Shown: positions 8,471-58,979 of the stretch, one piece after another
Numbering within the stretch: position 1 is the stretch's first letter
Layout of the letters: each line of letters opens with the position of its first letter
DNA from: an uncultured virus (IMG/VR IMGVR_UViG_3300027969_000051)
Lineage: Duplodnaviria; Heunggongvirae; Uroviricota; Caudoviricetes
Virus record (IMG/VR): IMGVR_UViG_3300027969_000051
Reading direction: 5' to 3' (one strand)
Length of the DNA stretch: 64,000 bases
Made by a program: the position numbers and the translations under genes
The notes under the pieces: model-generated
What the model was told of the DNA's origin: nothing
The model's database searches: none
Seen by the model: the letters and a program-made list of their open reading frames with translations, nothing else

Positions 8471-8496
8471 TATAAATACATTATCATATATTTATC
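8471..8496. promoter_or_regulatory. Pair of face-to-face late promoters (TATAAATA + at 8471-8478; GATAAATA - at 8489-8496)
   Basis: Both boxes lie in the 62-bp gap between divergent genes. Confidence 0.7.
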
Positions 8497-8507: not shown

Positions 8508-9335
8508 ATGGCTATAAATCCGCTACAGCAACATTTTAGACAACCAAAAATTTACGTTGGATTGCCTAGCAAAGGGCTATACAACGCACCTGGTTCTATC
8601 CAAGGTGACGCAGAACGAATGCCAGTATACGGTATGACTGGCATGGATGAGATTATTATGAAAACACCCGATGCCTTACTCAACGGAGAAGCAACTGTAA
8701 GGATTATAGAAAGCTGTTGTCCTGTAATCAAGGACGCTTGGGCTATAACAGCACTTGATCTCGATCTTGTTTTAACTGCTATAAAAATTGCCACTTATGG
8801 AAACAAACTAGAAGTTGAACATAAGTGTCCAAAATGCAGTTCTGAAAATCGCTATGAGTTAGATCTAGGTAAATTTGTTGATTACTATAGTCGTTATACC
8901 TACGATAATAAAATCACCATTGACGATCTTGTTATTAAATTACGACCGCTATCTTATAGAATTATTACAGATCTAGGTCTACGTAATTTTACAATCCAAC
9001 AACAGTTAAGACAAGCCCAAGCAATGCTTGATGTTGATGAGCGCAAAATTGAAAATCTTAAACTAGTAGAGTCTATGTCTGCACTGCAAAATGATATATT
9101 TTCTGCAAGTGTTGATTCTATCGAAGTTGACGGCACAGTAGTCACTGAAAAAGAATTTATTGTTGAATGGTTAAATAATTGCGAAAAAAATGTATTTGAT
9201 ATGTTGCAGGCAAAAATCAATGAAGTCCGAGATAGCTTAAAAACACCTCCGCAAGAAGTTATTTGTGATGGGTGTCAAGCTAAAAATATGTTGTCAGTTG
9301 ATCTAGATCCCGCAAGTTTTTTCGTTACAGCCTAA
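8508..9335 (+). CDS. gp26: Baseplate hub assembly chaperone, gp26-like
   Basis: LPSKG, DLDLVLTAIKIATYG, two CxxC pairs (CPKC, CDGC), C-terminal SFF. Confidence 0.8.
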   Translation: MAINPLQQHFRQPKIYVGLPSKGLYNAPGSIQGDAERMPVYGMTGMDEIIMKTPDALLNGEATVRIIESCCPVIKDAWAITALDLDLVLTAIKIATYGNKLEVEHKCPKCSSENRYELDLGKFVDYYSRYTYDNKITIDDLVIKLRPLSYRIITDLGLRNFTIQQQLRQAQAMLDVDERKIENLKLVESMSALQNDIFSASVDSIEVDGTVVTEKEFIVEWLNNCEKNVFDMLQAKINEVRDSLKTPPQEVICDGCQAKNMLSVDLDPASFFVTA

Positions 9336-9556
9336 CTAATCTATTACCGCAAGAGATTGAAGAACGTTTAGTTAGGCTTGACAATCAAGTTAAGGCATTT
9401 AAAGAAGAATTATTTAGAATAACTTGGTATATGCGCGGTGGTGTTACTGTTAGCGATCTATTAGATCGCTACGGTCATGAAGAACGCGAAGCTATTAATG
9501 AAATTATAAAAGAAAATATTGAAGCAAGTAAAAAAGCACAAATGCCTTTACTTTAA
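9323..9556 (+). CDS. gp51-like frame (not in ORF track), probably reached by -1 frameshift from the gp26-like gene
   Basis: -1 frame open for 77 codons from slippery T TTT TTC (9317-9323): RYSLTNLLPQEIEERL...ITWYMRGGVTVSD...KKAQMPLL; first ATG only at 9431. Confidence 0.65.
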   Translation, partial: RYSLTNLLPQEIEERLVRLDNQVKAFKEELFRITWYMRGGVTVSDLLDRYGHEEREAINEIIKENIEASKKAQMPLL

Positions 9557-10470
9557 TACTTGCTAGGTGCTAGATTAAGTTTGGTATTCCATGGTCGGTC
9601 TTTAGTAGGAGCATCTACTACACCTGCTCTTGGCCCGGGATCACCAAATTTTGGTGGCGGTCCAATTGGAGTATCCTGATACGGCACATCCGGGGTATCT
9701 GGTTTTTCTTTACCTGGAGGTAATTGTCCGTGCGTTACAATATATTTTAGATCACTTATTATTTCACCAGATTTAATATATTTAAATGCATCTAACATGC
9801 TGCCACCAACAGCCTCAACTATAATATCATGGATGACTACAAACGCAATCGCCTGATTCCATTTAGGATCATTAGCCACCTTCTGAAAAAATTCGTATCG
9901 TACAACATTAGTCATACCGCCAATAGCATCATCAACAAATTTAAACGGCCCTGTAAAGAAGCTGCCTAGCTTATTGCCAAACCCTTTGATCACCACAGCA
10001 CCAATGCCGTTGGTAATTAACTTAGCTGACAGTTGAGTAAGTTCCTGAGCAACATTACCTTCATACTCTTTTTCGCTTATTTTTTTAGCTGTGAGCTTTT
10101 CATTTTCTGTAGCAATGGCCCTAACGCAATTTCTGATCGGATCATATATTGCAGGCACTGTGCTGAATAAAGTTGTTGCCCAACTTAGATTTGCAACAAT
10201 ATCATTGTAGTGCAGACCCAGTCTAAAGCCCGCTACAGTAGTCGATCCAACTGCTCGTTCAAGAGCCGCATTCCAAATTCCTCGTATTTCCGATGCTGAA
10301 AAATTGCCATTGGCAATCATTTGTCGTATACGTGGAGTAGCTACATCGGCAAGACTTGATATAGACATACCGCTATTTTTAAGCACTTGAATCTCTGCGG
10401 CAATCTCTTTAACTAAAAGTTTAGCCGCATCTGTCCTAATGTCTTCAAAGATTATTTCGTGGATTTTCAT
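9553..10470 (-). CDS. Hypothetical late protein, possible internal head protein
   Basis: 305 aa; GATAAATA at 10479-10486; N-terminus MKIHEIIFE; Pro-rich C-terminus. Confidence 0.6.
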   Translation of the reverse strand: MKIHEIIFEDIRTDAAKLLVKEIAAEIQVLKNSGMSISSLADVATPRIRQMIANGNFSASEIRGIWNAALERAVGSTTVAGFRLGLHYNDIVANLSWATTLFSTVPAIYDPIRNCVRAIATENEKLTAKKISEKEYEGNVAQELTQLSAKLITNGIGAVVIKGFGNKLGSFFTGPFKFVDDAIGGMTNVVRYEFFQKVANDPKWNQAIAFVVIHDIIVEAVGGSMLDAFKYIKSGEIISDLKYIVTHGQLPPGKEKPDTPDVPYQDTPIGPPPKFGDPGPRAGVVDAPTKDRPWNTKLNLAPSKY

Positions 10471-10478
10471 TGTAATTC

Positions 10479-10486
10479 TATTTATC
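10479..10486 (-). promoter_or_regulatory. Late promoter GATAAATA
   Basis: 8 nt upstream of ATG at 10470. Confidence 0.65.
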
Positions 10487-10487
10487 G

Positions 10488-10950
10488 AGATGAACTACGT
10501 TCATCTGTGTTTTTCGCTAGAGCTCAAACACAGCTATTTCTTTTAATGATTAAGTAATCAAGTGCGAAGCACTTAGATATTATCTAGATTGTTCAGTCAC
10601 ACTTTGCCCTGGCCGGGCAAAGCGATTGACATTATCTGAGTTGAACATGTCACACTAGCGTTACACTATTACAGAGGCGGTCGTCCGGTACCTCGAAGTG
10701 CGTCTTTATACGACGGCAGTCTGTGGGCATACGCTAACACGCACACAAACGTAGGGTTTTTCTCCCTTCTTTTAGCCTGGTCAAATCTCTATTCTTACAG
10801 TTCAAACGGGTTAAAGGCTTATCCCATCATCATCCTTGCGGGTAGTGAAACTGCTACTCTACGCCAATTAGAGTTCCTTGCCGTCACACATCAGAACGGA
10901 TTCAGGGCACAATACTATCGCCTGTGCGGGCTTATTTGGCGTTATTTTGC
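10488..10950 (-). ncRNA. Candidate large structured non-coding RNA (or structured replication origin) downstream of the GIY-YIG gene
   Basis: Only long ORF-free gap in a densely coding window; at least 10 hand-identified stems; two GTGTGAC...GATAAT units; no family recognised. Confidence 0.6.
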
Positions 10951-11385
10951 CTAGTTTTCTTGGAGTTTGCGAATATGTGAACCGTGTACACGCACTTGAA
11001 TATGACCGTTATAATAGTCATTTGATTCTAGTACTCTGCGTGAAAACTGTTCTCTAGCCTCTATGTATGAGCATTCTGCCTTGGATTTACAATAGAAAAG
11101 TATTTCTCTACGAAATTTTTCTGTACCTAACTGCGTAACATCTTCGGTTAGCGCCGGCGAACTACCGTAATAGTCCTGCCAATCGCTGTCAATTTTGCTA
11201 CGGATTCGCTTTTTTTTCTTAGTGCCGTTCTTGAGTTTTACTGTTTTATAGGTAGTTTTTGAGAATTTAGCTAGTTTTTTGCCTATGTACATGCGTCCTG
11301 ACTGTGTGTTGGTGATAAGATATACAAATCCCACGCAATCTTCGGGTAGTGTTTCGACGAGTTGATCTTGATAGTACCATGACAT
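10951..11385 (-). CDS. Short GIY-YIG superfamily nuclease with a basic insertion
   Basis: GFVYLITN...GRMYIGKK, YYGSS, YIEAREQ, YYNG; Lys-rich insert KTVKLKNGTKKKKRIRSK. Confidence 0.8.
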   Translation of the reverse strand: MSWYYQDQLVETLPEDCVGFVYLITNTQSGRMYIGKKLAKFSKTTYKTVKLKNGTKKKKRIRSKIDSDWQDYYGSSPALTEDVTQLGTEKFRREILFYCKSKAECSYIEAREQFSRRVLESNDYYNGHIQVRVHGSHIRKLQEN

Positions 11386-11388
11386 CAA

Positions 11389-11655
11389 CTAGTTACCGTC
11401 TACACCACCTCCTGTTGAGCCTTTTTGAGCGAGCCTTTTTGTCTTGCGTTCTTTTAATTTTTCTAATTTTTCCACTTGCCACTCGCGAATGTCTTTTCGT
11501 CGAGCAGAGCAGATGCGCCTAATGTCACTGAGCCTGTGACGAAGTCGTACAGAGCTGGCATGCGTAGCTTCTCCCTGCCACTTTTGATTTTCCTCAAAGT
11601 AGGCTTTGAAAGCTCGCATGAGTTCAGCATGCAGTTGTTCGTCTTGCGATTTCAC
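11389..11655 (-). CDS. Small basic helical protein, resembles the Hc1 histone-H1-like family
   Basis: F..Y..EN.KW...ASSVRLRHRLSDIRRICSARRKDI pattern; Lys/Arg-rich. Confidence 0.5.
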   Translation of the reverse strand: MKSQDEQLHAELMRAFKAYFEENQKWQGEATHASSVRLRHRLSDIRRICSARRKDIREWQVEKLEKLKERKTKRLAQKGSTGGGVDGN

Positions 11656-11858: not shown

Positions 11859-13633
11859 TCTGTTACCTCTAAATCTGTTGCGTAACTGGTAAACCCATTC
11901 TCTTTGATCACCTTGAGCACGTTGTTTACTCGTCCAATCAGCTCGTCTTTGTGTGAAATTAAGAATATGTTCTTCTTACGTTCACGAGCCATGCGTTTTA
12001 ATACTGCCAGGGCACTTTCAACACCGCTGGCATCGAGACCGTTGTCTACTAACTCGTCAACAAACAACAAGTTAATCTGTTGATATAGGCTTTCCCACAC
12101 ATCGCGGAAGGCCCAACTTAGACCTAATATAAGTCTATTACGTTCACCTCTGCTCAAGTTATCAAAGTCCAAGTCCTGCCCTAGCTGTGTAATTTCAACA
12201 GTGAGGTCATTTTGGAATATAACTGTGTGAGGCAAGCCCATACGATCAAGATAGAATGTCAACCGATTGTTCAAGTAGGCTAAGTTTTGATCGATAATCT
12301 TTTTACGTATAAAGGAATCCTTGCTGGTCAGCAAGCGTAGCAGGAATTCTTGATGCTCTTTGAGATTAGTCAGTTCATTTACCTTGTCCCATGATACATC
12401 CTGCATGGCAGTATGCCGAAGTTCGTCGATCTGTTCTTGATAAGGATCTGACTCTCCAACTTTGATAGTGAGGTTAGTTTCTAAACTGCTAAGATTGTTT
12501 TGATGTTTAAGTGCCTGCTCAACAGTATCGTAATAGGTATTAGGTCGATTGCTGACTTCACCTAGTGCGGCAATTTCCGTGTTAATTTTAGCTAGATCTT
12601 TTGTAACTTTATCAAAGTACTTTTGCGCTTCAGCCAAATGTGTAGTAGCTTCAGCAGACATTTCCTCATGCTTGTGGTCATGTAGATCTTGTTCGCAAGC
12701 GTGACACTTTTTATCCTGCAACTTAGCAAGCTCGCCAGCGTACTTTTTTACGCTTCGCTCCGCTTGCGCTGTCGCGCTATCTAACGTAGCCCTCTCCTTA
12801 GCGAGGCTTTTCAGCTTCGCTGCCTTTTCTTCGAAAAGTTTTAGCTCGCTGTGCTTGGCAAGTTCAGCTTCGATGTCTACACTTTCTAATTCTATAATCG
12901 CACGGCCAATTTTTTCTAACTCTTGCTCGTGCTGAGTGTTCCATGCATGTTGTCTAGTAATTAAACTGTCGATGCTTTGTTGTATCTTATCGTTAGATCT
13001 TTTAGCGGCCTCTATATCTGCATTTTCCTGGAATATTTCATCCTTGGTGATTCGAGTAAGTTCTTTTAATGACTCTGCTTTTTCACTTAACAAAGTAATG
13101 CCTAGCAGTTGCTCAATGATTATTCTTTGATCATTGGCCTTCATACTCAGGAACGGCTCAGTATAGGTGTTAAGTGCTACAACGTGTTTGAACATGTCGT
13201 GACTCATGCCCAGCAAGTCATCTAAGTCCTTCTGGGTTTCACGCATATCTCCCTGTGCATCATCGGTTTCTGCGGTGTCCTGTGCTTGATCGTTGACATA
13301 GAACTGTAGCAAGGTTGGTTTACGACCACGTTCGATGCGATATTCAGTGTTGTCTTTTTCAAACGTAAGGGTAACTAACATATTTTTGTTGTTAATCTTA
13401 TTAATAAGATTATCTTTTTTAATGTTAGTTAAAGCGTTACCGTAGAGCGCATAACTTAAAGCATTAACGATTGTAGTTTTACCAGTACCGTTTCTGCTAC
13501 CGCTATCGTCTCCACCTTGATCTAAGTTTTCACCTAGTACTAGGGTTAAGTTTGCTTTTGTAAAGTCTACGGCCTGGGTTTGATTACCCACACTCATAAA
13601 GTTTTTAACTGTTAATTCTTTTATTTTTATCAT
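11855..13633 (-). CDS. gp46: Recombination ATPase subunit, gp46/SbcC/Rad50-like
   Basis: KNFMSVG, Walker A NGTGKTT, zinc hook CHAC, signature LSRGE, Walker B LLFVDE, ISH. Confidence 0.95.
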   Translation of the reverse strand: MIKIKELTVKNFMSVGNQTQAVDFTKANLTLVLGENLDQGGDDSGSRNGTGKTTIVNALSYALYGNALTNIKKDNLINKINNKNMLVTLTFEKDNTEYRIERGRKPTLLQFYVNDQAQDTAETDDAQGDMRETQKDLDDLLGMSHDMFKHVVALNTYTEPFLSMKANDQRIIIEQLLGITLLSEKAESLKELTRITKDEIFQENADIEAAKRSNDKIQQSIDSLITRQHAWNTQHEQELEKIGRAIIELESVDIEAELAKHSELKLFEEKAAKLKSLAKERATLDSATAQAERSVKKYAGELAKLQDKKCHACEQDLHDHKHEEMSAEATTHLAEAQKYFDKVTKDLAKINTEIAALGEVSNRPNTYYDTVEQALKHQNNLSSLETNLTIKVGESDPYQEQIDELRHTAMQDVSWDKVNELTNLKEHQEFLLRLLTSKDSFIRKKIIDQNLAYLNNRLTFYLDRMGLPHTVIFQNDLTVEITQLGQDLDFDNLSRGERNRLILGLSWAFRDVWESLYQQINLLFVDELVDNGLDASGVESALAVLKRMARERKKNIFLISHKDELIGRVNNVLKVIKENGFTSYATDLEVTE

Positions 13634-14643
13634 AAGCTATTATAAATTGCCAATAAGGTATTCTTGTCAAACTTGTCGGAATCGATATTGATAATCTGAT
13701 TGCTTACAATTTGATCTATACTTTCAAAAGCCTGTATATCTATACTAGTATTAATTTCAATTTCTTTCTTCTCTGCAATTAATGTAAGTTCCCGAATGTC
13801 ATAATCCGCAATAAACTTTTCTTTAATAAAGCTAGCTTCTTCAAAGGTAATATCAATGTCTAAGGCAACACGAAGGTGTTGTTTAGGCTTAATAATAGTA
13901 CTGGCATCGTCGATTAGCTGACTTAGTTTAACTGTGCGGAATGTAGGTTGGTTAGGCCAAGTATGATATTCCGGTTTGCCACCCCATTCTAGTATCATCA
14001 TGCCGCGATCGTCATCCCATGCATCTGAATAATTATGCGGAAATGCGTTGCCGATGTAAATCATATTTTCGTTCTGCTGGCGCTTGTGGAAATGTCCGCT
14101 AAAACCTAGTTCAAAGCCGTGGAACGCATCTACTTGTAATTCGCCGTGGTCTGGCATTTGCACCATGGCGTTCATAAAGAACTTGGGCAATTCAAAATGA
14201 CCAAAGCAATACTTGCCCTTCATGGTCTTTATTCTTTTCCATTCGTCTCCAACAAGCCAGGGACATAATGTAACACCGCCGATAGTAGTAGGCTCGTGTA
14301 CAACAGTAATGCCGGGAATATACTTGCCAAATTCAACTGAATGAATGTCCCGTTTATCTTTGTAGTACAAATCATGATTGCCAGGAAAAAAGTAAAAATT
14401 ATCAAATGCTTGACCCAATTTTTCCAAGGCACGTAAGCTATAATCCATCGTAGTGATATTAAGACTATTGCGATTATGATGCCAATCACCCATAAAGATA
14501 CCTGTATCACAGCCTTCCTCCTTTGCCTTAGCAATGTACCAATCTACAAAATCCTCACAGTCTTGGTTGTGTACCGAGCTGTTAGATTTTAATCCAAAAT
14601 GTATGTCTGTAAAACAGGCTATCTTTTTGAACAAATTACTCAT
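13630..14643 (-). CDS. gp47: Recombination nuclease subunit, gp47/SbcD/Mre11-like
   Basis: Metallophosphoesterase motifs DIHFG, GDWHH, GNHD, GHFE, SGHFH. Confidence 0.95.
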   Translation of the reverse strand: MSNLFKKIACFTDIHFGLKSNSSVHNQDCEDFVDWYIAKAKEEGCDTGIFMGDWHHNRNSLNITTMDYSLRALEKLGQAFDNFYFFPGNHDLYYKDKRDIHSVEFGKYIPGITVVHEPTTIGGVTLCPWLVGDEWKRIKTMKGKYCFGHFELPKFFMNAMVQMPDHGELQVDAFHGFELGFSGHFHKRQQNENMIYIGNAFPHNYSDAWDDDRGMMILEWGGKPEYHTWPNQPTFRTVKLSQLIDDASTIIKPKQHLRVALDIDITFEEASFIKEKFIADYDIRELTLIAEKKEIEINTSIDIQAFESIDQIVSNQIINIDSDKFDKNTLLAIYNSL

Positions 14644-15470
14644 TCAGGTGTGCCTTCTTCGAATCGTTTAACTGCATTTGCATGGTCCGCCGCACCAGTT
14701 CTACTGTAGCTAGGGTTCATGCCATTCATTTCTAAAATATCATCACGGATATTCTGATTACGTTTTTCAATGTTAATAACACGAACAAAACTATTAGTCA
14801 CAGCCGCAGTAAAATAAGCAAATGGATTGTCAGATTTGCTTTCATCAAACTGTAATCCAATCTGTGTTAACTGTAGAATAGCCTGTCCTTTCATCTCATC
14901 GTTGTAGGTATATCCGCGAACGTTGCCGCGAGTAGCGTACCTCTCACATAACTTTAACATCATTCTTGCTAAAGTTGGAGTAATTTGGCCTGCATCTTTA
15001 TCAAAATGCCCTTTCTCTAGGTCGCCCTTCCAATGACTCTTACCTACGCACACCAGTTGATCTTCTTCGTTAAACTTCCAATGCTGGAACGGCGGAAAGT
15101 TAACTTTATCTCTATGATCTGCTAGACTTTTTGGATTCTTTTTTCGAACATTGTTCAATGGAATATGATCATATGTCATAACACGAAATACAACATCTAG
15201 TTTTTGGATCTTTTTATAGTCAACTTCGCAGTCTGCTTGTTTGACTTTTTCTCCTGCTTTTTTACGAGTTTGATATTCCAAATCGCCAATGCGTTTAGCA
15301 CGGTTTCTTTTGGCTTCTGCAATGCTTCGAATGTTTATTTTATCAGTACTTGGTATAATTAGATCGTACTGATGAAACTCTGATTGGGTAAACACACAAT
15401 ACGAACTTTTCGAACGATGTATTTCTAACAACATATCCTTGTTGTTTAGGTAATTTACTTTAGCTGTCAT
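14640..15470 (-). CDS. gp55: Late-transcription sigma factor, gp55-like, enlarged
   Basis: NYLNNKDML, GYTYNDEM, FDESKSDNPFAYFT, FVRVINIEKR; T4 55-47-46 gene order. Confidence 0.9.
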   Translation of the reverse strand: MTAKVNYLNNKDMLLEIHRSKSSYCVFTQSEFHQYDLIIPSTDKINIRSIAEAKRNRAKRIGDLEYQTRKKAGEKVKQADCEVDYKKIQKLDVVFRVMTYDHIPLNNVRKKNPKSLADHRDKVNFPPFQHWKFNEEDQLVCVGKSHWKGDLEKGHFDKDAGQITPTLARMMLKLCERYATRGNVRGYTYNDEMKGQAILQLTQIGLQFDESKSDNPFAYFTAAVTNSFVRVINIEKRNQNIRDDILEMNGMNPSYSRTGAADHANAVKRFEEGTPE

Positions 15471-15492
15471 TAATTCATTCTCCGGATGTTAT

Positions 15493-15521
15493 ATTATAAA
15501 CTACGTACATTAAAAAGTCAA
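15493..15521 (-). promoter_or_regulatory. Sigma70-type promoter for the gp55-47-46 operon
   Basis: TTGACT-17 bp-TATAAT on the minus strand. Confidence 0.85.
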
Positions 15522-15528
15522 CTAAATA
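15521..15528 (+). promoter_or_regulatory. Late promoter (ACTAAATA) for the baseplate operon
   Basis: TAAATA core about 25 nt before ATG at 15553; TAAACTAC 18 nt upstream. Confidence 0.55.
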
Positions 15529-15552
15529 TTATACCAAAAGGGGAATAATAAT

Positions 15553-16527
15553 ATGGCAATAACTGGAAGGCAAATAAGTGCTACAACTGGAGCAATTGGT
15601 GCTGGAGCCGCGGCAGTAAACACCGCAAGTAATCTAGCATCCGCATTTTCAGGAGCGGCAAATGTTGGCACAGCTATCCGAAGTATCAATTTACCCTCCG
15701 CAGGAGAGGCGATTGGTGACATATATAGTGCTGTTGCTGCCTTTGGAGGCGATGCAGCCGCAAATGATTGGCGTGTCAGATTAAGTCTCCCTACGTGGCC
15801 TAGTTTTAGAACTAGTCCGGTTTTAGAACCTTTAAAAGATGCAGGCGGATTGGTGTTTCCATACACTCCGCAGATTACTATGACCAGTTCGGCAACATAT
15901 AATACTATTAAAACTGTTCATACGAACTACCAGTTTCAAGCATATCAGTCTAGCGACCCGGGCGAAATACAAATTACTGCACCAATGAACGTTGAGGATG
16001 CAAGCCAAGGATTATATTGGATCGCAGCCATGCATTATTTACGTAGCCTAACAAAAATGTTTACAGGAACTGATCCTAAGGCAGGCAATCCTCCTCCGAT
16101 TGTATTTCTAAACGGTTACGGTAATTATGTTTTTAAAAATATACCTGTTGTAGTAAAAAGTTTTCAGGCAACGCTAGATGATAAATCGGATTATATTAGT
16201 GTTCCAGTAGTCGGTAGTGCCGCCGGAGCAATTCAGGGAGCCGCTGATACCGCCGCCGCACTAGCCGAGACGCTCGGCGGCGTGTTTGGTACAAATGCAA
16301 TTACTGATACAGTTAGTGAAGTTGCAGGAGGGATCGGCCAAGTTGCAGCCTTAGGCGCACTGCTTGGCATAGGCGGTTCATCATCTGGCGGAATTAGTTA
16401 TGTACCTGCAAAGAGTAGTTTCACTATTACATTGATGCCGATGTACAGTCGAAATAGTGCTCGTAGGTTCAGTCTTGACAGGTTTGTTGAAGGCGGATAT
16501 CTTACTAGTGGTTTTGGATATATTTAA
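15553..16527 (+). CDS. Baseplate tail-tube initiator/cap (gp48/gp54-like)
   Basis: GLVFPYTPQI, GNPPPIVFLNGYG..VFKNIPVVVKSF tube-fold motifs; first gene of the baseplate cluster. Confidence 0.7.
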   Translation: MAITGRQISATTGAIGAGAAAVNTASNLASAFSGAANVGTAIRSINLPSAGEAIGDIYSAVAAFGGDAAANDWRVRLSLPTWPSFRTSPVLEPLKDAGGLVFPYTPQITMTSSATYNTIKTVHTNYQFQAYQSSDPGEIQITAPMNVEDASQGLYWIAAMHYLRSLTKMFTGTDPKAGNPPPIVFLNGYGNYVFKNIPVVVKSFQATLDDKSDYISVPVVGSAAGAIQGAADTAAALAETLGGVFGTNAITDTVSEVAGGIGQVAALGALLGIGGSSSGGISYVPAKSSFTITLMPMYSRNSARRFSLDRFVEGGYLTSGFGYI

Positions 16528-16528
16528 T

Positions 16529-16831
16529 ATGGCAGCTAATTACCTAAATAACAGTCCTTATTTTAATACACCGATAGTTAGAAACTATCTTAGTATTTTA
16601 GAAATTAGGCCAGTGAGTGCAGATGTAGATGATTTTCTCTACACAATAGAACCTCAATATACCTACCGACCAGATTTACTAGCGTATGACCTGTATGGTG
16701 ATGCTAAGTTATGGTGGGTGTTTATACAACGTAACTTAGATGTAATACAAGATCCTATTTTAGATTTTGTTCCTGGCAAGCAAATTTACATTTGCAAATT
16801 AAGCGGGCTAACCTCGGCCCTGGGACTATAA
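16529..16831 (+). CDS. gp53: Baseplate wedge protein, gp53-like (LysM-like)
   Basis: YRPDLLAYDLYGDAKLWWVF..RN motif; start reassigned to ATG at 16529. Confidence 0.8.
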   Translation: MAANYLNNSPYFNTPIVRNYLSILEIRPVSADVDDFLYTIEPQYTYRPDLLAYDLYGDAKLWWVFIQRNLDVIQDPILDFVPGKQIYICKLSGLTSALGL

Positions 16832-16832
16832 T

Positions 16833-24100: not shown

Positions 24101-24686
24101 CGATGTTCAGTTTAGGCAATGGCTAAATGGTTCAAATGTTGCGCAACCATTACCGCCAAGCTCTGATGAACTTAATTCAGTACTAGCACCTAATTTAAAT
24201 TTAATTAAATCTATATCAGATGAAATTATATATCATCCAGTTAGCTACATTTTACTATTCGGCGCCAAGGCAGAACCTAGTCTTCAAGCAAATTTTAATG
24301 TAGTAAAAAACCCGACATCTGCAGTGTCTAATGCTGATATTACTGCTAGAGTATTAACTGCAATTAATGAATTCTTTAGTTTAGAGAATTGGGACTTTGG
24401 AGATACATTTTATTTTACAGAGTTATCAACTTATGTGATGACAAAACTAGCACCTGATATTACAAACTTTGTGATAGTACCTAGCCAAACAGGTCAATAT
24501 TTTGGTAGTTTATTTGAAATTAAATGTCCAACAGATCAAATTTTCTTAAGTTGTGCAACAACATCAAATATTATTATAGTGACAGGTTATACATCAAGCA
24601 ATCTTAAAACAGTAACAGGACAAGGGTTAACCTCAACTACAATGACTCAACAAATCAACAGTGCAAATTATGGGGCAAATAATTAA
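21174..24686 (+). CDS. gp6: Baseplate wedge protein, gp6-like
   Basis: DFENLR, ENFLELAERRDSILRLARLISY, FSDGTFG, NAPQTYYTQNRMITAEDY. Confidence 0.9.
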   Translation: MSSTSRQNNLLLAEDWQKIYQSFKNADFQSYDFENLRRTMVDYIRTNFPEDFNDYVESSEYLALIDLIAFVGQSIAFRVDLNARENFLELAERRDSILRLARLISYNAKRTIAAQGLLKFTTVQTTENVIDINGRNISGQFITWNDPSNSNWYDQFIRVINAAMPQTQQFGSPADSAQIFGVPTAQYRFNGTNTDVPVYGFTKSVAGRSMDFEITSTTFNGQTFIYEESPKVGNSIACIYKDDGYGPGSPGTGFFFNFTQGTLNAGSFTVTNPSSNETIGIDTQNINNTDVWLYQLDQSTGNESTLWTQVPALTGNNIIYNTINQKIKTIYNVITRAGDALTLSFSDGTFGARPLGTFRIYYRISNNLAYVINPADISNVLISIPYTSAAGQTETLTVSLSLETSVTNATQSETNESVKTNAPQTYYTQNRMITAEDYNISPLAANSQITKVKSVNRTSSGISRYFDLTDPTGKYSSTNLFADDGVLYQQQYIAGTNFTYISKTDISGVIVNTITPILEDVNLRNFYYQNFVNYLTSSLNVSWYGVTTDSNSSTGFIGETTTATPLPAGPGYTLTDLKYITNGALIKFTAPVIANVQYYFNTKRNNVLTTGLPNTPGLVTYLWATVISTTGDSTANGAGTLTTGFGPIKLSKAVQTLRSASGVVVAAPLLSQIIPQFSTKITSSVKAAMIDLIYDNASFGLRYDAAAQAWQLIFESNLDSISAFSLANQGSTTNTQQDASWFLLFTTNTEYYTVTARQLRYVFESDKEISFYFDDVTKMFDLVTGNTITDLIKVLDINTQPDNSYPLSTTYEWGIVSEYIGQDGYIDPKKIIVTFSDPQDTGTVDNPQLFLDIVSPTVNQSTKYVVQERYNITQGQEDYRYVYNEPTLGPVIILPSRSSISSLVDYADGTYFYFIDTQVVTQLNLTTSILEPTLNYKVFVGRDKLRFQYLHSADYDSRIDPGISNIIDVYVLTNSYDVQFRQWLNGSNVAQPLPPSSDELNSVLAPNLNLIKSISDEIIYHPVSYILLFGAKAEPSLQANFNVVKNPTSAVSNADITARVLTAINEFFSLENWDFGDTFYFTELSTYVMTKLAPDITNFVIVPSQTGQYFGSLFEIKCPTDQIFLSCATTSNIIIVTGYTSSNLKTVTGQGLTSTTMTQQINSANYGANN

Positions 24687-27600
24687 TGGCAACAAATAAA
24701 CTCCCAAACGCAAATGGTCTTAGTGTTAACTTATTACCGGATTTTTATCAAACTTCTACCAATAAGAAATTTTTACAGGCTACGATTGATCAGTTATACC
24801 AACCTGGTACTGTTACCAAGACTAGCGGGTTTATAGGTAGTCAAACGGCCAAAGCTACTTCCGGTGAAGATGTGTATGTTGGAGCGCCGTCGGTCACGAG
24901 ACAAAACTATCAGCTAGACCCTGGAATAGTTATCAAAGACGAATTAGACAACATAACATTTTTTAAAGACTATCAAGATTATATTAATCAATTAGGAGTA
25001 TTCGGAGCTAACACTAGCAACCATGCTCGATTGAATAAGCAAGAATTTTACAGTTGGGATCCGCATATTGATTGGGATAAGTTTGTCAATTTCCAGAACT
25101 ATTACTGGCTTCCGTACGGCCCGTCTCTAATAACAATTTATGGACAGTCGACTGCGATCGCCAGTACGTACACTGTTGAAATTCAAGACGAGCAGAACAG
25201 ATATCAATATTTGTTCACCCCCAACGGATTAGATTTAAACCCATCAATTAAATTATACAGAGGGCAAACGTATCATTTTGATATTAACAGCCCGGCAAAT
25301 CCTTTTTCGTTTAAACTTCTCAGAAGTATAGGGCAGTCTGACAGATATGTTATCCCCGGTATTAGCGGGTACGGTGTTGAGACCGGAACTATTACTTTTA
25401 CTATTCCTAGTGATTCACCAAGTGTGCTGTTCTATCAAAGTGAAGCTGATATTAATCTCGGCGGTATCGTTGAAATATACGATATTGAAGAGTCGTCAAA
25501 AATTGATGTTACAAATGATATTCTAGGTAAAAAAACATATTCGTTAGCAAACGGTCTTTCGTTAAGCAACGGTATGAAAGTAGCGTTCGGCGGCCTCGTT
25601 ACACCTGATACCTATGCATCCGGACAATATTATGTTGAAGGGGTAGGCACTGCAATAAAGCTAGTTCCAGAAAGCATCTTAGAAATTATAAGCCCTTATA
25701 CAACAGCACAATCAATATTGTTTGATTCAACACCATTTGATACTGAACCATTTAGTGATAGCACTGGATTTGCAAGTCTAAAAGATTATATTGTTATAAA
25801 CCGATCAAGCAAAGACCATAATCCGTGGAGCAGATATAATCGTTGGTTTCATAAAGATGTTATTTCAGCGAGTGCATCATACAACGGAACTACTACGACC
25901 TTAAATCAAGAATCTCGTGCTAACAGATCTATTATAGAATTTGAAGCAGATTTAAAATTATTTAATTTTGGCGCAACTGCGATTACTGATGTTGATCTAG
26001 TTGACGACTATACCTCGGATATTTTTTCAGAGATTGAAGGAACTCGTGGTTACAACATTGATGGGGTACAACTAACTGAAGGATTAAAAATATTATTTAC
26101 AGCAGATCCTGACCCTCTTGTAAAAGATAAGATATTTCAGGTGTCGTTTTTAATAATACAAGGGATTCGTCAGATCCATTTAGAAGAGATATTAATTCCA
26201 CAGTACGATCAAGTTACCTTAGTTCGTCAAGGAGTAAAGTATCAAAGTCAAATGCTATGGTACAATGGTATTACATGGATCTCTGCTCAACAGAAAACAA
26301 ATACAAATCAAAGTCCGTTATTTGATCTAGTTGATGAGACCGAAACAAGTTATGGAAATACTGAAGCCTATCCAGGATCTACATTCGTTGGAACTCCGAT
26401 TTTTTCTTACAAGATTGCGACTACTGGCACAACAGACGCTGTATTAGGATTTAAACTAAGCTATCAAAATGTAAACAACGTTGGCGACATATTATTTCAA
26501 TTTAATCTCGCCAATGATACATTTGAATATAAAACAACTTCTTCTGTAGTTTCTCAAGCAATTAATACTGGATATTTAATAAGAAAAGACTATGTAGGTA
26601 ATCCGATATATGTTAACGGATGGCAAATTTGCCAAACAACAAACGTGCAAGCCGCCCGACGAGTTTATAAAAATTCTGGAAAAGTTAATAATTTTAATCT
26701 TGATATTTTTGACGATGTTTCTAAATTAACTGATTTAGTGGTAAAAGTTTATGTTAATGGCGTTCGCCTTGCATCAACTAGCTGGCAATTAGTTAATGGC
26801 TCAAATTATAAGATTATTAATCTTAACGCTGACATTGCATTAACTGACATTCTACTAATTAGAGCATTCTCATCGCAGCCAATTAATGAAAATGGATTCT
26901 ATGAGATACCATTTAACCTGCAAAATAATCCATTGAACGATTACATGGCAGAGTTTACATTAGGTGAAGTATCAGACCATGTAAATTCAATTGTTGATAA
27001 TGTAGCTAACTTCAGCGGAGCATTTCCGGGTGCCAGCAATTTACGAGATTTAGGAAGTGTGTCACAGTACGGTACTAAATTTGTACAGCACAGCGGCCCA
27101 GTTAGTCTTGCACTCTACCATCTTACCTCAGAAAAAAACAACGTTATCAAGGCGATTGAAAAAAGTAGAGAAGATTATAATTCTTTTAAAAGAAATTTTG
27201 TAAATGTTCTAGGAACAGTTGCGGCAGAGGGCGTATCAACATCAGACTTTGTTGAAGGATTAATGGCAAAAATTAATCAAAACTCGGCAGTATCATCTAC
27301 ATACTGGTTCTCCGATATGCTAGCGTTTGGGGCACAAAGCAAGACAGATCTTACAGTCGTGGATTTTCGTATACGGGAATACCCGTTAACAGATCCGTTT
27401 TCTTTAAATGTATTGTCTAGTAAAGCAGTTCACATTTATCTTAATGGAGAACAATTACTATACGGGTTACAGTATACGTTTAATGACCAAGGGTTTGTAA
27501 TAATTTTAGATTCTGTTATTCTAGTTAACGGCGATATTATTACCACAATTGAATATGACAGCACCGATGGCAGCTTAGTCCCAGCAACTCCTACTAAATT

Positions 27601-30600
27601 AGGAATATGGCCAAAATTTGAACCTAAAATTTATCTTGATACAAGTTTAGTTACCCCTCGAATGATGATTCAAGGGCACGACGGAAGTCAAACCTTAGCA
27701 TTTGGTGATTACCGAGATGCTGTAATTTTAGAACTTGAAAAGAAAATTTACAATAATATTAAAGTACAGTATGACCCGTCAATTTTTGATATTAATGATT
27801 TTATTCCTGGATATAATCGAGTAACTGATTATTCATTATCTGAATTTAATACAGTACTAGCACCTAATTTTTACAAATGGATAAATGTTGTCGGAGTAGA
27901 TTTTACAAAACCTCTTAGTTATGACAGAAGTAATAGTTTTACATACAATTATTCGAATGATGTTGCACCAGATGGCAGAAATGTTCCAGGATACTGGAGA
28001 GGAATTTACAGATGGCTGTTAGACACTGATAGACCAAATCTTTGCCCTTGGGAGATGTTAGGGTTTAGTATAGAACCTACTTGGTGGACAACAGTATACG
28101 GACCAGCTCCTTACACTAGTGAAAATAAAGTATTATGGCAGGATTTATCAGATGGCGCAATTAAACAGCCAGGAAAACCTGTAGTAGTTAATAAAAAATA
28201 TGTTCGTCCGTTTTTAATTAATCATATCCCCGTTGACGAAAGTGGAAATATACTTAGTCCTCAAGCATCGGGTCTAGCAACTGGAATCTTTAGACAGAGT
28301 ACTGATAATAATTTCGTATTCGGTGATGTTAGTCCTGTAGAATCTGCATGGAGAAGAAGTAGCCACTTTCCGTTCAGTGTGATAATTGCAACAATGTTAA
28401 TGGCACCTGCAAATACATTCGGGTTGCTTTTAGATAGAAGTCGTATCGTCCGAAACAAGGCTAAACAATTAGTGTATCGAGATACCGGACTTAGAATAAG
28501 ACCGATGGATATTGTTGTACCAAGTACATATTTTAGTCCGACTCGTATCCCAACAGCCGGTATTGTTAATTACCTAGTTGATTACATTCTTAGTTTTTCA
28601 TTCACTGACAATCTTCTTCAGTATACACGATATGCTAGTGATTTATCACTAATAAATGTCCAACTGAGTTATAGGATCGGTGCGTTTACAAACAAAGATA
28701 AATTTAATTTATTGTTAGAATCTAAAACGCCGTTGAGTACTGGCAACGTGTTTATACCTCAAGAAGATTATCAAGTATTTTTAAACACATCTAGTCCTAT
28801 TAAAAAATTAACATATAGCGGAGTAATAATTACCAAGCTATCAACAGGATTTGAAGTTAAAGGATATAGCCTAACCCAGCCGTATTTTAAAATATACAAC
28901 TATTTGCAATCCGGCACTACTATTAATGTGGGCGGTATCTCTGAAAATTATGTTAATTGGACCGCTGGCCAACAATATATTAGCGGCACGATTGTAAAAT
29001 ATTCAAATAAATTCTTTAGATCAATTTCAACAAACACTGCGGCCTCAGCATTCGATGCAACTAATTTTGCATCATTGCCTGAATTACCAATAGTCGGTGG
29101 TGTCAACGCAATTTTTAGAAAAAAATGGGACACTGATGAAGAAGTTACAATCCCGTATGGTACTACATTTAAAACTGTACAACAGGTTGTTGATTTTCTT
29201 TTAGGGTACGGCGAATGGTTAACTGCTCAAGGATTTGAATTTAATACATTCAACAGTAATCTCGGGTCAATCAGCAATTGGTCAACTAGTAGCAAAGAAT
29301 TTATGTTCTGGACTACACAAAATTGGTCAACTGGCCAGGATAAGTGGAGTGACTGGATTGCCGAGCAACCATACACTTATGGATCTATTGTTAGATACAA
29401 CGGGGATTATTACAGTGCAAATTATAACATTTTACCGTCTGCGATATTTGACAGTACTAATTATACTAAATTAGACGGGCTAAGTGAGCTTGGAAGTTCT
29501 GTCATTAGTCTAAGTCCCGGCGCAAGCGGAATTAAATTCACTACGGCGTTGTCAGTAGTAGATAATATTACTAATCCGTTTAACGTATATGAATTTTTTA
29601 AAGTTGACGGCACTCCTATTAATTCTAGAGACCTCGATAGTTACCGAGAAGGAAACGAAGTTTCGTACACTCCAAAAACGAACGACGGAATATACTGCGC
29701 TAGTTTTTATCTAATCCAGAACGAACATGTTATTGTAATCAATAACATTGATATATTTAATGATGTAATTTATAATCCAACTAGTGGATATCGACGAGAT
29801 CGTATTAAAATATCTGGCTATGTGACAACTAACTGGTACGGCGGATTAGACATTCCTGGCTTTATATTTGATCAAGCTGTTATAAACAATTGGCAGGCTT
29901 GGCAAGACTACAATATGGGAGATGTAGTAGCATACCAAGGCAACTATTATAGTGCTATCACTTTCTTAGCCGGCACACAAGCATTTAATACTGCTAGTTG
30001 GTCTCGTCTAAGTAAAAAACCAAACTCTGCAATTTTGCCGAACTGGACGAACCTTGCAACTCAGTTTACAGATTTTTATGGGCTTGATATTGAAGGGTTC
30101 GATACTGCCCAACAAACTATGTCTCATCATTTAATTGGATATCAAAAGCGTGAATATCTTAACAATATTATTCAAGACGATGTTAGCGAATTTAAATTCT
30201 ATCAAGGAATGATTCGAGAAAAGGGTACACAGAACGTTCTTAATAAATTATTCGGGGTGTTAACAAACAACAACGAAGACAGTTTAAAATTTTATGAAGA
30301 GTGGGCACTTCGTGTTGGTAGATACGGTGCAGAATCAGCTTTTGAAGATATTGAAATTGTTTTAGATGAAGCACTTTTTAGAAATAACCCTCAGGGATAT
30401 GTATTAGTTCCTAGGAAAGATAAAAACATTAATTCATTTATTGTTCAGCAAACTCCAAATGATGTGTATTTAAAACCGTTAGGGTATAATTCAAATCCAT
30501 TTCCAGCTGTTGTAGATCACACTCCTCTACTACGATCAGCCGGATATGTTAATCCTGTTGATGTAACATTTAGTCTTGGTACTATAGCTGACATTTTAAC

Positions 30601-33600
30601 TAAAGATATTGATACATTAAACAATGGCGGGTATGCATGGGCGGCGTTTGAAGGAGCCTCTTGGAACATTTATAGATTTACTGATTTACAAATTAGAGTA
30701 ACTGATGTAAGTTATAATTTACCAACTAAAACTTTAAGCATTAGTACAGCAAATATAATTCCGTTTAAGGAAGGGTCGTATGTAGGTCTATCACAAGTTG
30801 CATTGTTAAAAGGATTTTATAAAGTTGAATCAGTTAAACTAAATGTCTTTACGGTATCAGCAACTATTGCTAGTTTTCCGCAGTCGTTTACCCAACAAGG
30901 TGAACTAGTAGTGTATTCATTAATATCACGCCGTGCTCCTTCTATTGATTCGATTGATCAACTGATACTTTCACATCTATCTCCTGGAGAGTTAATATGG
31001 ACTGACGATGACGGCACCGGCAAATGGGCTAGTTGGAAATACGACCCAATTTATAATAGTACTCCAGTTAGAAATCCAACTCCCCAAAGTAATTTCTTAT
31101 TTGGTACCTCGATGACAGTAGATAAAAACAGTTCAATTTTAGCTGTTGGGAATTCTCAAGGAACTGTTCTTATATACGATAAGGTTGGCCGAGCAGTACC
31201 GTGGGTACAGCGAGATACCTTAGATATACCTTTTATAGTTAAAAACAGCCAACTAGATCCTTCTCGAAATCTACAGCCTAATCAAGTTAGTACAATACTT
31301 GCAATTAGTACAGACACTACATGGCTAGCTACTGGTAGTCCCCTTGTAGGTTATGCTTGTTCAGCGTATGTTGGTGACTATGTAAATCAATTATATTCAG
31401 TAGATGATGTTGTAAGAATTCAAACATCAGTAACATCATGGGAATATTATCGAGCGATTGAATCTGTACCCTTAGGTCAAGCGCCGAGCCCGATATCACT
31501 CTATTGGGAAACTATCCCATACATTAGTATTGATAAGAATACTGGCACTGATTCAAATCTTGCAGGCCAAGGAGTTATCAGTATATACAAAAAAGATATT
31601 AATAACGTCTTTTCTCTAGTGGACACGATCATTAGCCCGGTTCCAGCAACTAATGAAAATTTTGGTTCTACATTAAAATTTGGTAATAATACACTATATG
31701 TAGGAGCTACAGGGTATGACAACAATCGCGGCAGAGTATACAAATTAAATTACGTTACAATAATTAACCGCACATATGCATTTAACCCAGTAGGCAGCTC
31801 TGCGAATACTGTAGTGTTGTCTTCATCGTTAGGAGTTCGAGAAGGCATGCTGGTCGAAAGTGTTGGGTTCCCAGCTAGCGCAGAGGTAACAGTTGAGTAC
31901 GTGTTAACTAAGATGACTTTTCTATCGTCGCTGACTATCATTGCCTCAATTACTGCTGGTATGACTGTTGAGGGTAATAATATTCTACCCGGAGTAACGG
32001 TAGTATACAAAGGCGAAGATGTTAACAGTAGTGGCCAAACTACTAATTTATATGTTGTAGTTAAAGGACCACAAGATCTAAGCTCAAACATAACATTAGT
32101 ATTATTTGGCGGTACAATAAGCGTAGCAACTACTGGAGTTTCTAGTTTAAAAACTGTTATCTTAAATGGTACTCCAACTACTACGCCAGTAGGTAATATT
32201 AATTTTGTTACTAAAAACTGGACATATGATTTTAGTGAAGAGTATATTGGCCTAGAAACAGGAAGTAATTTTGGTAGTGCTATCGATTTAAGTATTGACG
32301 AATCGACCCTTGCAATTTCAGCATCTGGCGGGATTAGGGATGGGCAAGTGACTGTTTATAAGAATTCTAGTTTAGTCGGAATACTTTCGTCGCCGACCGC
32401 CGGGGCAGTTTCTAATTTTGGATGTAGTATTTCATTAGACAACACAGGCAGCTTTTTAGTAATTTCAGACCCGTATGCAACACAATCTATTTCCGGGGAA
32501 GGAGTCGTTACAGTATTTTATTACGACACCGTAATTTCTGAATACTTACCATTCCAAGTGCTGACAGATGCACACCCCCAAACAAATGGATTATTTGGTT
32601 ATAAAGTTTCATTTATGAATGACAGCCAGACCATTGCCACACTTAGCAAAAATGGCGATACTTCTATTGAAACTACTTTTAATGTTGGGGGTATAACTAC
32701 TTTCGACAAGCAGTCGACTAATTTTATAACTACACAATTTAATAATGGCCGGGTCGACATTTATGATCGATACAACACTACTTGGGAGTTCAGCGAAAGT
32801 TTAATTTCAACCAATCAACCAAGTGAAGGGTACGGGGTAGGCTTTGCCGTTGGCACAGATCGTGTTGTTGTCAGTGCCCCATTTGCAACTGATAACAGTT
32901 TAAATTCCGGAAGAGTTTACGATTACGGCAAACCTCGTAACACGTTTACCTGGACCATTGATAAATTTGAAACAACAATCCCAGACGTATCTAAAATTAA
33001 AAAAGCGTTCTTATACAACAGAAGTTTAGGAACACTTGTAACATACTTAGACTATGTTGACCCGCTACAAGGTAAAATACCCGGCCCAGCAGAAGAAGAA
33101 ATTAAATTTAAGACATTCTACGATCCTGCAATTTATTCACTAGGAACTGATGCAGTAACCGTTGATAGTAATTCGTATTGGAACGATGAGCAAGTTGGTA
33201 TGTTGTGGTGGAATTTAAGCACTGCTAAGTTCCTTAATAATTATTTTGACGATGTTGGATATAGAAATAATACGTGGAACACACTGGCAACCGGAGCATC
33301 GATTGACATCTATGAGTGGGTTGGCACTAAACTAAAACCGGAACAGTGGGATGCTAAAGCTGACACCCCTGCAGGTATATCGGTTGGTATTAGCGGAACT
33401 TCTTTATACGGAGCCGGAGTATATAGCGCATCACAGACATACGACACTGTTAGTAAGGCTTTTATTACTACATATTTTTTCTGGGTTAAGAACAAAAAAG
33501 TTGTTCCAAATATACCTGGAAGATATTTAACAGCTAGTGATATTTCATCGTTAATTACAAATCCTAGAGGCCAGGGCTATACTTGTTTAGCATTAACTGG

Positions 33601-58951: not shown

Positions 58952-58979
58952 AGTATCTCCTTAATATGTACGTATATAA

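Follow-up and report, generated by a model that had tools for sequence, protein, structure and literature searches.

What occupies the long stretch without open reading frames (ORFs) behind a small GIY-YIG nuclease gene of an uncultured tailed phage, and does it belong to the nuclease? The DNA that was analysed, called the window in the following, has a length of 64,000 nt and stems from the IMG/VR record IMGVR_UViG_3300027969_000051 (Caudoviricetes). The gap spans 480 nt (10471-10950) and is bordered by two minus-strand ORFs, that of GIY-YIG (10951-11388) and one of 305 aa (9553-10470). An earlier sequence-only reading had described it as an ornate structured RNA and had proposed that this RNA and the nuclease form a particle. 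Its observation that the gap is GC-richer than the AT-rich flanks was borne out (G+C of 0.47-0.485 in 200-nt windows, compared with 0.33-0.42 nearby). It had also been called the only long ORF-free gap of the window, with all others at about 110 bp or less. It is indeed the longest, but further gaps of 305 nt (16528-16832), 227 nt (58753-58979) and 217 nt (9336-9552) exist between ORFs of at least 50 aa. The gap was found to contain an RNA that is the full-length form, about three times longer, of the Polynucleobacter-1 RNA (RF01718), and that carries two identical heptamers, a feature which is new to this family and is not explained by the fold.

10488..10942, minus strand: structured RNA of about 455 nt, from the P0 pseudoknot strand to the terminal hairpin P15 (homologues, covariation)
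10795..10932, minus strand: 5′ domain of the RNA with helices P1, P2, P3, P4 and P4b (RF01718 match, 138 nt)

A scan of the whole window with Rfam yielded one match above threshold, RF01718 at 10795-10932 on the minus strand, with 66.3 bits (gathering score 37), an E value of 7e-12 and coverage of model positions 1-141 of 141. A more permissive scan with E up to 10, run on 10300-11500, gave nothing credible beyond it. The sequence-only reading, which had named a match to a known, unrelated Rfam family in advance as evidence against its proposal, had not recognised the family. The 5′ third belongs to RF01718, to which no function is assigned, while the remaining two thirds are indeed outside the model, namely the P0 leader strand, the pseudoknots PK3 and P7/P8, the twin heptamers and the P14-P15 module. 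The main-text table of Weinberg 2010 (PMC2864571) lists the motif as a probable RNA and a probable cis-regulator ("cis-reg? y") and gives Burkholderiales and fresh water/estuary as its sources; a table in the supplement has 16 members. The setting in these tables, Burkholderiales and fresh water, agrees with the Burkholderiales genomes found here, and the difference lies in the length, 141 model positions compared with about 455 nt of conserved RNA. Within the parts of the literature that were searched, Polynucleobacter-1 or RF01718 was named in the 2010 paper alone (PMC2864571), and none of these texts, as far as they were covered, reports T4-like phage contigs.

A search of IMG/VR with the nuclease protein gave at least 596 relatives, the best 80 of which were kept. 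The entire gap, beyond the Rfam part, is retained at 69-100% identity directly 3′ of the nuclease gene in 79 of 81 loci (blastn); of the two others, one is a contig that ends early, and one carries a coding insert. Reading frames are not conserved: among 57 unique flanks, the longest stretch without a stop codon varies between 43 and 156 aa. With a profile built from the nuclease flanks, the RNA was retrieved in 184 loci and was full-length in 151 of these; 128 unique full-length sequences were aligned. Two other candidates were rejected for the gap, a degraded C-terminal coding region because of the missing frame conservation, and a group I intron because no Rfam match was obtained and the flanking ORFs are separate genes.

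The fold of the single sequence was modestly more stable than that of shuffled sequences (z -2.21, 3 of 100 shuffles as good). The analysis of 74 curated pairs, which represent fifteen helices, on 53 homologous flanks (alignment A1) gave a much clearer result. Paired cells amounted to 87.7%, compared with 72.5% after shuffling; 52 pairs had changed on both sides, compared with 38.6; and the covariation score was 0.437, compared with 0.161, with none of 500 shuffles as high. When the partners were slid by 1-3 columns, the score dropped to 0.06-0.085. The test of the nuclease 3′ flanks for covariation, which the sequence-only reading had suggested, was therefore strongly positive. In the helix cells, GU/UG was found 675 times and AC/CA 144 times (of 8960), and this large excess of GU shows that the minus strand folds, which is also the sense strand for the nuclease, as had been assumed. 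The features are as follows, all of them on the minus strand; RNA position p corresponds to window coordinate 10951-p. P13 was scored one column off in the set of 74 pairs, and the RNAalifold pairs give its right register.

10936-10942 (p9-15) with 10861-10867 (p84-90), minus: P0 pseudoknot, leader strand with the loop of the P3 hairpin (duplex test)
p24-28/40-44, minus: helix P1, compensatory change (3-5 pairs per helix with changes on both sides in P1, P4 and P4b)
p52-55/67-70, minus: helix P2, compensatory change (pair 53-69 is UA 62, CG 42)
p100-105/147-152, minus: helix P4, covaries
p123-128/141-146, minus: helix P4b, covaries
p184-187/195-198, minus: helix P5, compensatory change
10739-10749/10720-10730 (p202-212/221-231), minus: P6 hairpin, all 11 pairs change on both sides
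10731-10737 (p214-220) with 10655-10661 (p290-296), minus: pseudoknot PK3 of the P6 loop, 6-7 of 7 pairs change on both sides
10664..10714, minus: H-type pseudoknot, P7 crossing P8 and P8b (covariation, cognate duplex test)
10710-10714/10680-10684 (p237-241/267-271), minus: helix P7 (CG/UA 68/60, GC/AU 66/50)
10697-10700/10664-10667 (p251-254/284-287), minus: helix P8, all four pairs covary
10691-10694/10674-10677 (p257-260/274-277), minus: helix P8b (AU/UA 94/33)
10602..10622 (p329-336/342-349), minus: P10 hairpin between the twin heptamers, CUUUGCCC/GGGCAAAG (pair 332-346 is UA 82, AU 16, CG 7)
p380-382/386-388, minus: helix P13, compensatory change
10488..10531, minus: 3′ module of P14/P14b and P15 (covariation)
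10507-10531 (p420-425/439-444 and p428-429/434-435), minus: helices P14 and P14b, covary
10488-10506 (p445-452/456-463), minus: terminal hairpin P15, covaries

The long-range pairings were additionally analysed with an alignment-free duplex test, in which the duplex energy of the two segments of one sequence was compared with the energies obtained with the segments of other sequences, and three unrelated segment pairs served as controls. The fraction of non-cognate partners that bound as well was 0.036 for PK3, 0.075 for P7, 0.10 for P8 and 0.28 for P0, compared with 0.55-0.64 for the controls. The cognate P0 duplexes had an average energy of -10.15 kcal/mol and the non-cognate ones of -8.35 kcal/mol, and inspection by eye showed that P0 reads CUACCG/CGGUAG in bacterial copies of the RNA (see below) and CGCCAA/UUGGCG in the phages. 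The RNA contains at least two pseudoknots, and probably three. In the bacterial copies the P10 stem also has another sequence, with the pairing kept.

Most of the helices that had been read from the single sequence are supported by compensatory change, i.e., GCACA/TGTGC, CCGT/ACGG, GGG/CCC, AGGG/CCCT, GTTTGTG/CACAGAC, CACT/AGTG, GAGG/CCTC and CTTTGCCC/GGGCAAAG, and GACAT/ATGTC is supported as judged by eye on the alignment. The pairing ACGCCAA/TTGGCGT, which corresponds to P0, found moderate support, but it does not close a multiloop as had been proposed; instead, one strand pairs with the loop of the hairpin that follows, to give a pseudoknot. Three further helices had to be given up, because CGTC/GACG and CGG/CCG overlap the covarying helix GUCGU/ACGAC and GTAG/CTAC overlaps P4. 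A postulated pseudoknot between AGCCT and AGGCT performed no better than the controls in the duplex test (0.60).

The very conserved 3′ domain contains two copies of the same heptamer, one on either side of hairpin P10 and about 52 nt apart.

10631..10637 (p314-320), minus: R1, AGAUAAU in the frame ACUC-N7-GUC (ATTATCT on the plus strand)
10579..10585 (p366-372), minus: R2, AGAUAAU in the frame AUCU-N7-AUC, identical to R1

R1 and R2 were identical to each other in all 128 unique freshwater phage RNAs, which comprise nine variants of the heptamer, from AGAUAAU (56 sequences) to GAAUGAU (one sequence). The letters that flank the heptamers are conserved, yet they differ between R1 and R2. The same was observed in a second phage clade, recognised by nucleases like that of phage Melnitz, which is 48% identical to the window protein. 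Here, framed identical twins were present in all 26 RNAs detected by the profile, and further variants were found, e.g., ACAUGAA, ACAUGAU and GGUGAAG, while shuffled flanks of this clade contained a framed twin in 19 of 1360 trials. Among six bacterial copies, five also have identical twins (AGCGAAA, GGCGAAA twice, AGCGAUG and AGCAAUG). Across the family all seven positions vary, and the spacing between R1 and R2 is 47-60 nt. On a tree calculated from the rest of the RNA, the heptamer state changed at least 42 times by parsimony, a number that tree error or recombination may have inflated; nine states need at least eight changes. No column of the RNA was complementary to the heptamers or tracked them, the next best normalised mutual information being at most 0.57, compared with 1.0 between the twins. 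The last two letters of R1 pair within P9, and R2 has no equivalent partner. Since structure within the RNA does not account for the identity of the twins, the simplest reading is that one sequence-specific partner reads both of them. A search for such a partner sequence in the bacterial loci revealed nothing consistent.

To count the linkage of RNA and nuclease from the side of the RNA, a pattern of 15 bases from the P7/P8 core was used, and 105 of its 120 matches were true RNAs according to the profile. In genome contigs, at least 80 loci matched in a pattern scan; the profile did not find the RNA in any of the 80 that were retrieved, and these chance matches say nothing about its absence. 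Sixty freshwater loci had the RNA 5′ end and at least 500 nt upstream of it. A GIY-YIG gene ends within 120 nt upstream of the RNA in 54 of them, down to a protein identity of 56%. In five further loci the GIY-YIG gene is located 810-1062 nt upstream, with another gene in between. The last locus, L148, has a gene for a PD-(D/E)XK nuclease (PF24608, E 6e-30) in the slot of the GIY-YIG gene, and its RNA matches RF01718 with 63 bits. In the Melnitz-like clade 68 loci had enough flanking sequence; a profile match to the RNA was present in 26, four of them full-length and the others limited to the 3′ domain, and eight more had the framed twin element. The remaining 34 loci had neither, and in 17 of these the next ORF starts less than 150 nt behind the nuclease gene. 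Likewise, the four GenBank phages that were inspected (Melnitz-3, phiN3, ACP17 and P-HM2) have a short gap behind the nuclease gene without an RF01718 match. Thus, the conserved linkage that had been expected holds insofar as the RNA follows the nuclease in two phage clades (54/60 and at least 26/68 loci), but each of the two is also found alone.

The nuclease gene itself is annotated as follows.

10951..11388, minus: SegE-type GIY-YIG nuclease gene (PF19835, phrog_447; 145 aa from the TTG at 11388)

Homologues align from the ATG at 11385. The protein matches Pfam PF19835 (SegE_GIY-YIG) with an E value of 5e-33 over residues 4-130 of 145, and also phrog_447, so that the description as a catalytic GIY-YIG domain alone was correct. 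A basic stretch is present at the position of the "very basic insert" that had been linked to the RNA, but it is a feature of the protein family and also occurs in homologues without the RNA. Homologues were found in 456 GenBank phage records, mostly of cyanophages and often mislabelled as "NAD synthetase"; among the 40 listed of these 456 records, the gene occurs at one place per record, and in the IMG/VR loci its position is fixed and syntenic. Compared with Seg-type homing endonucleases, the SegE-family catalytic domain is present, and a separate DNA-binding domain and a sporadic, mobile distribution are lacking. Seg genes can lie beside stable RNA genes, as T4 segB does in the T4 tRNA cluster. 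The arrangement described here is similar in that a free-standing Seg-type GIY-YIG gene adjoins a highly conserved RNA gene in a T4-like genome, whereas it differs in that the nuclease gene is single-copy (in the 40 records mentioned) and syntenic rather than sporadic.

The bacterial copies were found in Burkholderiales. RF01718 was above the cut-off in three of 151 sampled genomes, a fourth match was weak, and the occurrence was sporadic (one of four genomes in one genus, one of 33 in its family). At these loci the phage profile matched both the 5′ and the 3′ end of the RNA, 460-510 nt apart, showing that the full RNA is present. A GIY-YIG gene was not detected with tblastn within 1.1-19 kb around the bacterial RNAs. 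In all three bacterial loci with flanks, a divergent DUF6641 gene (PF20346) lies across the 5′ end of the RNA. DUF6641 genes were present in 24 copies in 14 of 401 genomes, with up to four copies per genome. The RF01718 model gave no match in 20 other DUF6641 loci, but a blastn search with the bacterial RNAs uncovered two more divergent copies among these 20, and thus the Rfam model under-detects the family. Taken together, the RNA adjoins five of the 24 DUF6641 genes. DUF6641 was absent from GenBank phages, with one weak match in IMG/VR; an AlphaFold model of the protein (pLDDT 83.9) had no fold match in the Protein Data Bank (PDB) at E <= 0.001, and DUF6641 was not mentioned in the literature searched. 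In the bacterial locus L330 the RNA is flanked by genes for a tyrosine integrase and for Zorya ZorD (12262-16257, minus, and 8730-9368, minus; PADLOC ZorD 1279.6 bits), i.e., in the setting of a defence island. The ZorD neighbour was the only PADLOC match apart from a weak "HEase" match of the GIY-YIG protein (E 2e-6).

Most of the other DUF6641 copies have a gene of 130-200 aa in the position of the RNA. Five of these genes form the gene family X.

L340, 878-1381, minus: gene X
L336, 1937-2557, plus: gene X
L347, 2021-2587, plus: gene X
L349, 766-1362, minus: gene X
L342, 758-1315, minus: gene X

Gene X belongs to no Pfam family and has no sequence match in the PDB. It contains HxH-like and YxxK-like motifs (LHxH, W..YITKE), and the best fold matches of its AlphaFold model were SIRV1 ORF119, PCV2 Rep and the origin-binding domain of AAV2 Rep, all of them weak (E 0.008-0.04). 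These features, together with the up to four DUF6641 copies per genome, make DUF6641 and X look like a small mobile module of the HUH type. Four DUF6641 loci without the RNA have a divergent gene followed by another conserved noncoding stretch of about 330 nt, which ends in the P14-P15 module. The framed 7-mers in these stretches, two each, are not identical, and the stretch possibly constitutes a further member, so far undescribed, of an RNA superfamily.

L356, 640-1060, minus: stretch of about 330 nt ending in P14-P15
L341, 2400-2790, plus: stretch of about 330 nt ending in P14-P15
L334, 2390-2830, plus: stretch of about 330 nt ending in P14-P15
L335, 620-1000, minus: stretch of about 330 nt ending in P14-P15

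The ends of the RNA unit can be derived from its neighbourhood. In the phage loci P1 begins 0-51 nt past the nuclease stop codon, and P0 can therefore overlap the end of the ORF. Hardly any space, if at all, is thus available for a promoter, and a promoter was not detected; the RNA is therefore presumably transcribed through or from within the nuclease gene. At the other end, the RNA directly abuts convergent baseplate-hub genes in seven relatives (L013, L015, L016, L041, L043, L045 and L076) and lies within about 17 nt of them in two more (L069 and L071). In the window the following features come next.

10479..10485, minus: ATAAATA, late-promoter-like, 9 nt before the ATG of the 305-aa ORF; end of the RNA unit
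9553..10470, minus: variable downstream gene for 305 aa, outside the RNA unit (no family; present only in L001)

The 305-aa ORF has no Pfam or PHROG family, and among the IMG/VR loci it is present only in L001, a contig that is identical to the window. Neither blastn with the gap nor tblastn with the 305-aa protein gave a match among the GenBank phages, and RF01718 was not matched in the nearest record, G001, a fragment that is 5% complete. As the 305-aa gene occurs in one contig and the RNA elsewhere abuts convergent genes, the RNA is not the leader of the downstream gene, and a leader of the 305-aa gene was rejected for its absence in relatives. ATAAATA, which we take to resemble the consensus of T4-type late promoters, is depleted in the window (13 sites, 31.4 expected), and the sites include 8472-8478 (plus), 8489-8495 (minus) and 10479-10485 (minus). 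In 74 of the 128 homologues AUAAAUA follows P15 within 30 nt. Several of the sites in the window are located just upstream of structural genes, as would be expected if this motif were the late-promoter core of the phage. A terminator scan called an intrinsic terminator on the opposite strand, plus, only. Read on that strand, P15 (10488-10506) is followed by GTGTTTTTCG and scores as an intrinsic terminator, which could be a stop for the convergent plus-strand genes in relatives without the 305-aa gene.

These results are best accommodated, with a probability that we put at roughly one half, by an autonomous, horizontally shared non-coding RNA whose scaffold would present an evolvable 7-nt element twice to one shared partner. 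The minus strand of 10488-10942 would be the gene of a free-standing, multiply pseudoknotted RNA and the last element of a minus-strand block of gp47, gp46, small ORFs, GIY-YIG and RNA. Transcription would most likely pass through the GIY-YIG gene or start within it, and would end at P15, ahead of the apparent late promoter of the next gene. The family is common to freshwater and marine T4-like phages and to small DUF6641-bearing modules of Burkholderiales, and this sharing suggests that the RNA moves and works independently of the GIY-YIG nuclease. The 5′ and central domains may serve as a rigid scaffold, while the 3′ domain would display the two copies of a freely evolving heptamer. We infer that the RNA acts in trans and holds two copies, or two sites, of one sequence-reading partner, which might be a protein dimer or a nucleic acid. 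The mutual identity of the heptamers in spite of change at every position is what points to such a partner. The data show that the RNA exists, together with its extent, strand, fold, family membership and distribution and the identity of the twins, from which its transcription start, trans action and bivalent binding are inferred. A catalogued orphan motif of 141 nt thus represents one third of an RNA of about 455 nt that appears to be triply pseudoknotted and occurs in mobile Burkholderiales modules as well as in hundreds of contigs of uncultured T4-like phages from fresh water and the sea, and a large orphan RNA that offers a testable specificity element is a rare case.

Several observations weigh against the reading as an autonomous RNA with a common partner. 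In the sixth bacterial copy (L353) the twins are not identical but differ in one purine. No syntenic reverse complement of the heptamer was found within the flanks of 1.5-3 kb, and ATTATCT is not enriched in the window (16 sites, 16.1 expected). Promoters near the RNA start did not exceed chance (8 sites, 6.4 expected), and the U-tail behind P15 is weak, with at least four U in 8 nt in 30 of the 128 homologues. Four metatranscriptome runs gave strandless contigs at a depth of 2-5 that cover portions of the RNA and of its two flanking genes (GIY-YIG and 305 aa), but these libraries may contain DNA and gave no transcript ends, so that they speak neither for nor against transcription. The modules of the bacterial relatives carry an HUH-Rep-like gene in the position of the RNA, which fits a role at the level of DNA. 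Lastly, the adjacency to the nuclease gene is prevalent within both phage clades.

A rival explanation, the one of the sequence-only reading, is that the GIY-YIG protein and the RNA form a ribonucleoprotein in which the RNA gives the nuclease a scaffold or target specificity; the twin heptamers, for example, might serve for this. The adjacency in 54 of the 60 loci down to 56% protein identity, its recurrence in the Melnitz-like clade (at least 26 of 68), the replacement nuclease of another family in L148, the absence of a DNA-binding domain beyond PF19835 and the similarity of the twin 7-nt elements to a programmable code would all suit it. We nevertheless regard it as very unlikely, because each component occurs widely without the other: the RNA is present in bacteria without GIY-YIG, and the nuclease is without the RNA in the four inspected GenBank phages and in half of the Melnitz-like loci (34 of 68). 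Moreover, five loci have a gene inserted between the two, L148 has the nuclease replaced, the basic stretch is common to homologues without the RNA, no match to HEARO or another guide-RNA family was obtained at E up to 10 (10300-11500), and no complementary target was found in the flanks of 1.5-3 kb or in the window. The match to RF01718 also speaks against the particle that the sequence-only reading had proposed. IscB/HEARO and TnpB, with which the sequence-only reading had drawn a comparison, likewise combine a compact nuclease gene with an adjoining long structured RNA; here, the nuclease fold is GIY-YIG and not RuvC/HNH, HEARO was not matched at E up to 10, the RNA and the nuclease are not obligately linked but are also found separately, and guide-target complementarity was not found. 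An "RNA-guided GIY-YIG nuclease" is a tempting but unsupported reading. The phage adjacency is best explained by inheritance of the gene order where a transcription unit ends, and RNA and nuclease are probably neighbours rather than partners; there may still be a facultative partnership or a functional tie to "a nuclease", since the adjacency is common and another nuclease fills the slot in L148.

The position of gene X leads to another explanation, which we consider unlikely: the element could act on its own DNA locus, as an origin-like or nick-site region derived from HUH-Rep modules, with a fold of single-stranded DNA or a template-bound primer RNA and with the heptamers as iteron-like repeats or twin cleavage sites. 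X usually holds the position of the RNA in the 24 bacterial DUF6641 loci, it has the HxH-like and YxxK-like motifs, its best model matches are Rep proteins, though with weak E values of 0.008-0.04, and the P14-P15 module is found at the end of the X loci as well. Iterons are direct repeats that are identical to each other, and the twins resemble them in this respect. Three interlocked pseudoknots and many G-U pairs, on the other hand, are typical of RNA and not of DNA hairpins, the heptamer spacing is variable (47-60 nt), the framed 7-mers of the X loci are not identical, a Rep or HUH gene was not detected among the 48 ORFs of the window, and the convergent gene layout leaves no room for an unwinding element. 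The RNA might also act in cis, either as a 3′-UTR (untranslated region) that protects or terminates an early/middle operon or as a leader that controls the downstream gene. For this speak its location at the 3′ end of the GIY-YIG transcription unit with a hairpin at its end, the entry "cis-reg? y" in the table of Weinberg 2010 (PMC2864571), and the same-strand gene that follows the RNA in bacteria. Yet the genes downstream of the RNA, encoding a 224-aa protein, a YbjN-like protein, a small membrane-like protein and the 305-aa phage protein, have no blastp matches to each other, nine phage loci have no downstream gene, and that of the phage apparently has its own late promoter. In addition, protection of an end needs far less than about 455 nt, three pseudoknots and twin coded loops, and the U-tail is weak; a cis-acting RNA is thus quite unlikely. 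The preferred trans-acting RNA could be extended to a new class of bivalent "reader" RNAs, common to mobile modules of freshwater bacteria and to the T4-like phages of these bacteria, with the twin heptamers as a programmable specificity code. The loops would direct a protein to matching nucleic acid, or would mark two cuts that free a piece of about 52 nt with P10. As the partner one would expect one of the two nucleases, GIY-YIG or PD-(D/E)XK, in the phages, and either DUF6641 or the HUH-like protein in the bacteria. This extension is quite unlikely.

Among large RNAs, GOLLD and ROOL are ornate, several hundred nt long and rich in pseudoknots, occur sporadically in bacteria and commonly in phages, and have no assigned function. 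The RNA described here resembles them in length, pseudoknots, phage and sporadic bacterial distribution and the unassigned function; it differs in that the region has no Rfam match to GOLLD or ROOL at E up to 10, and twin identical variable elements are, to our knowledge, not a known feature of these RNAs. The RNA of a type III toxin-antitoxin system was also considered and rejected, because there are only two partial repeats and neither Pfam nor PADLOC gave a ToxN/AbiQ match for the downstream proteins.

The wider setting is that of a T4-like genome. The minus-strand block upstream contains homologues of T4 gp46/gp47 (SbcCD-like) and two small ORFs, followed by GIY-YIG, and the remainder of the window consists of T4-type structural genes, including gp23, gp20, the prohead protease and baseplate proteins. 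A single ORF of 4904 aa (24686-39400, plus), with a carbohydrate-binding module (CBM_5_12) as its sole Pfam match, probably encodes a giant fibre or adhesin. The ORF-free gaps at 16528-16832 and 58753-58979 had no Rfam match at the gathering threshold. The slot between the RNA and the baseplate-hub genes (10471-9553 in the window; L002-L081) is hypervariable, and it contains no gene in nine relatives. In many other relatives the slot genes start with MK(I/V)..(E/D)II, as seen by eye, and then diverge completely. Of the 80 IMG/VR contigs, 13 stop less than 500 nt past the nuclease stop codon, inside the RNA (L003, L023, L025, L030, L032, L036, L037, L042, L049, L064, L067, L070 and L079). This seems to exceed random fragmentation, and assemblies probably break at the conserved element beside the hypervariable slot.

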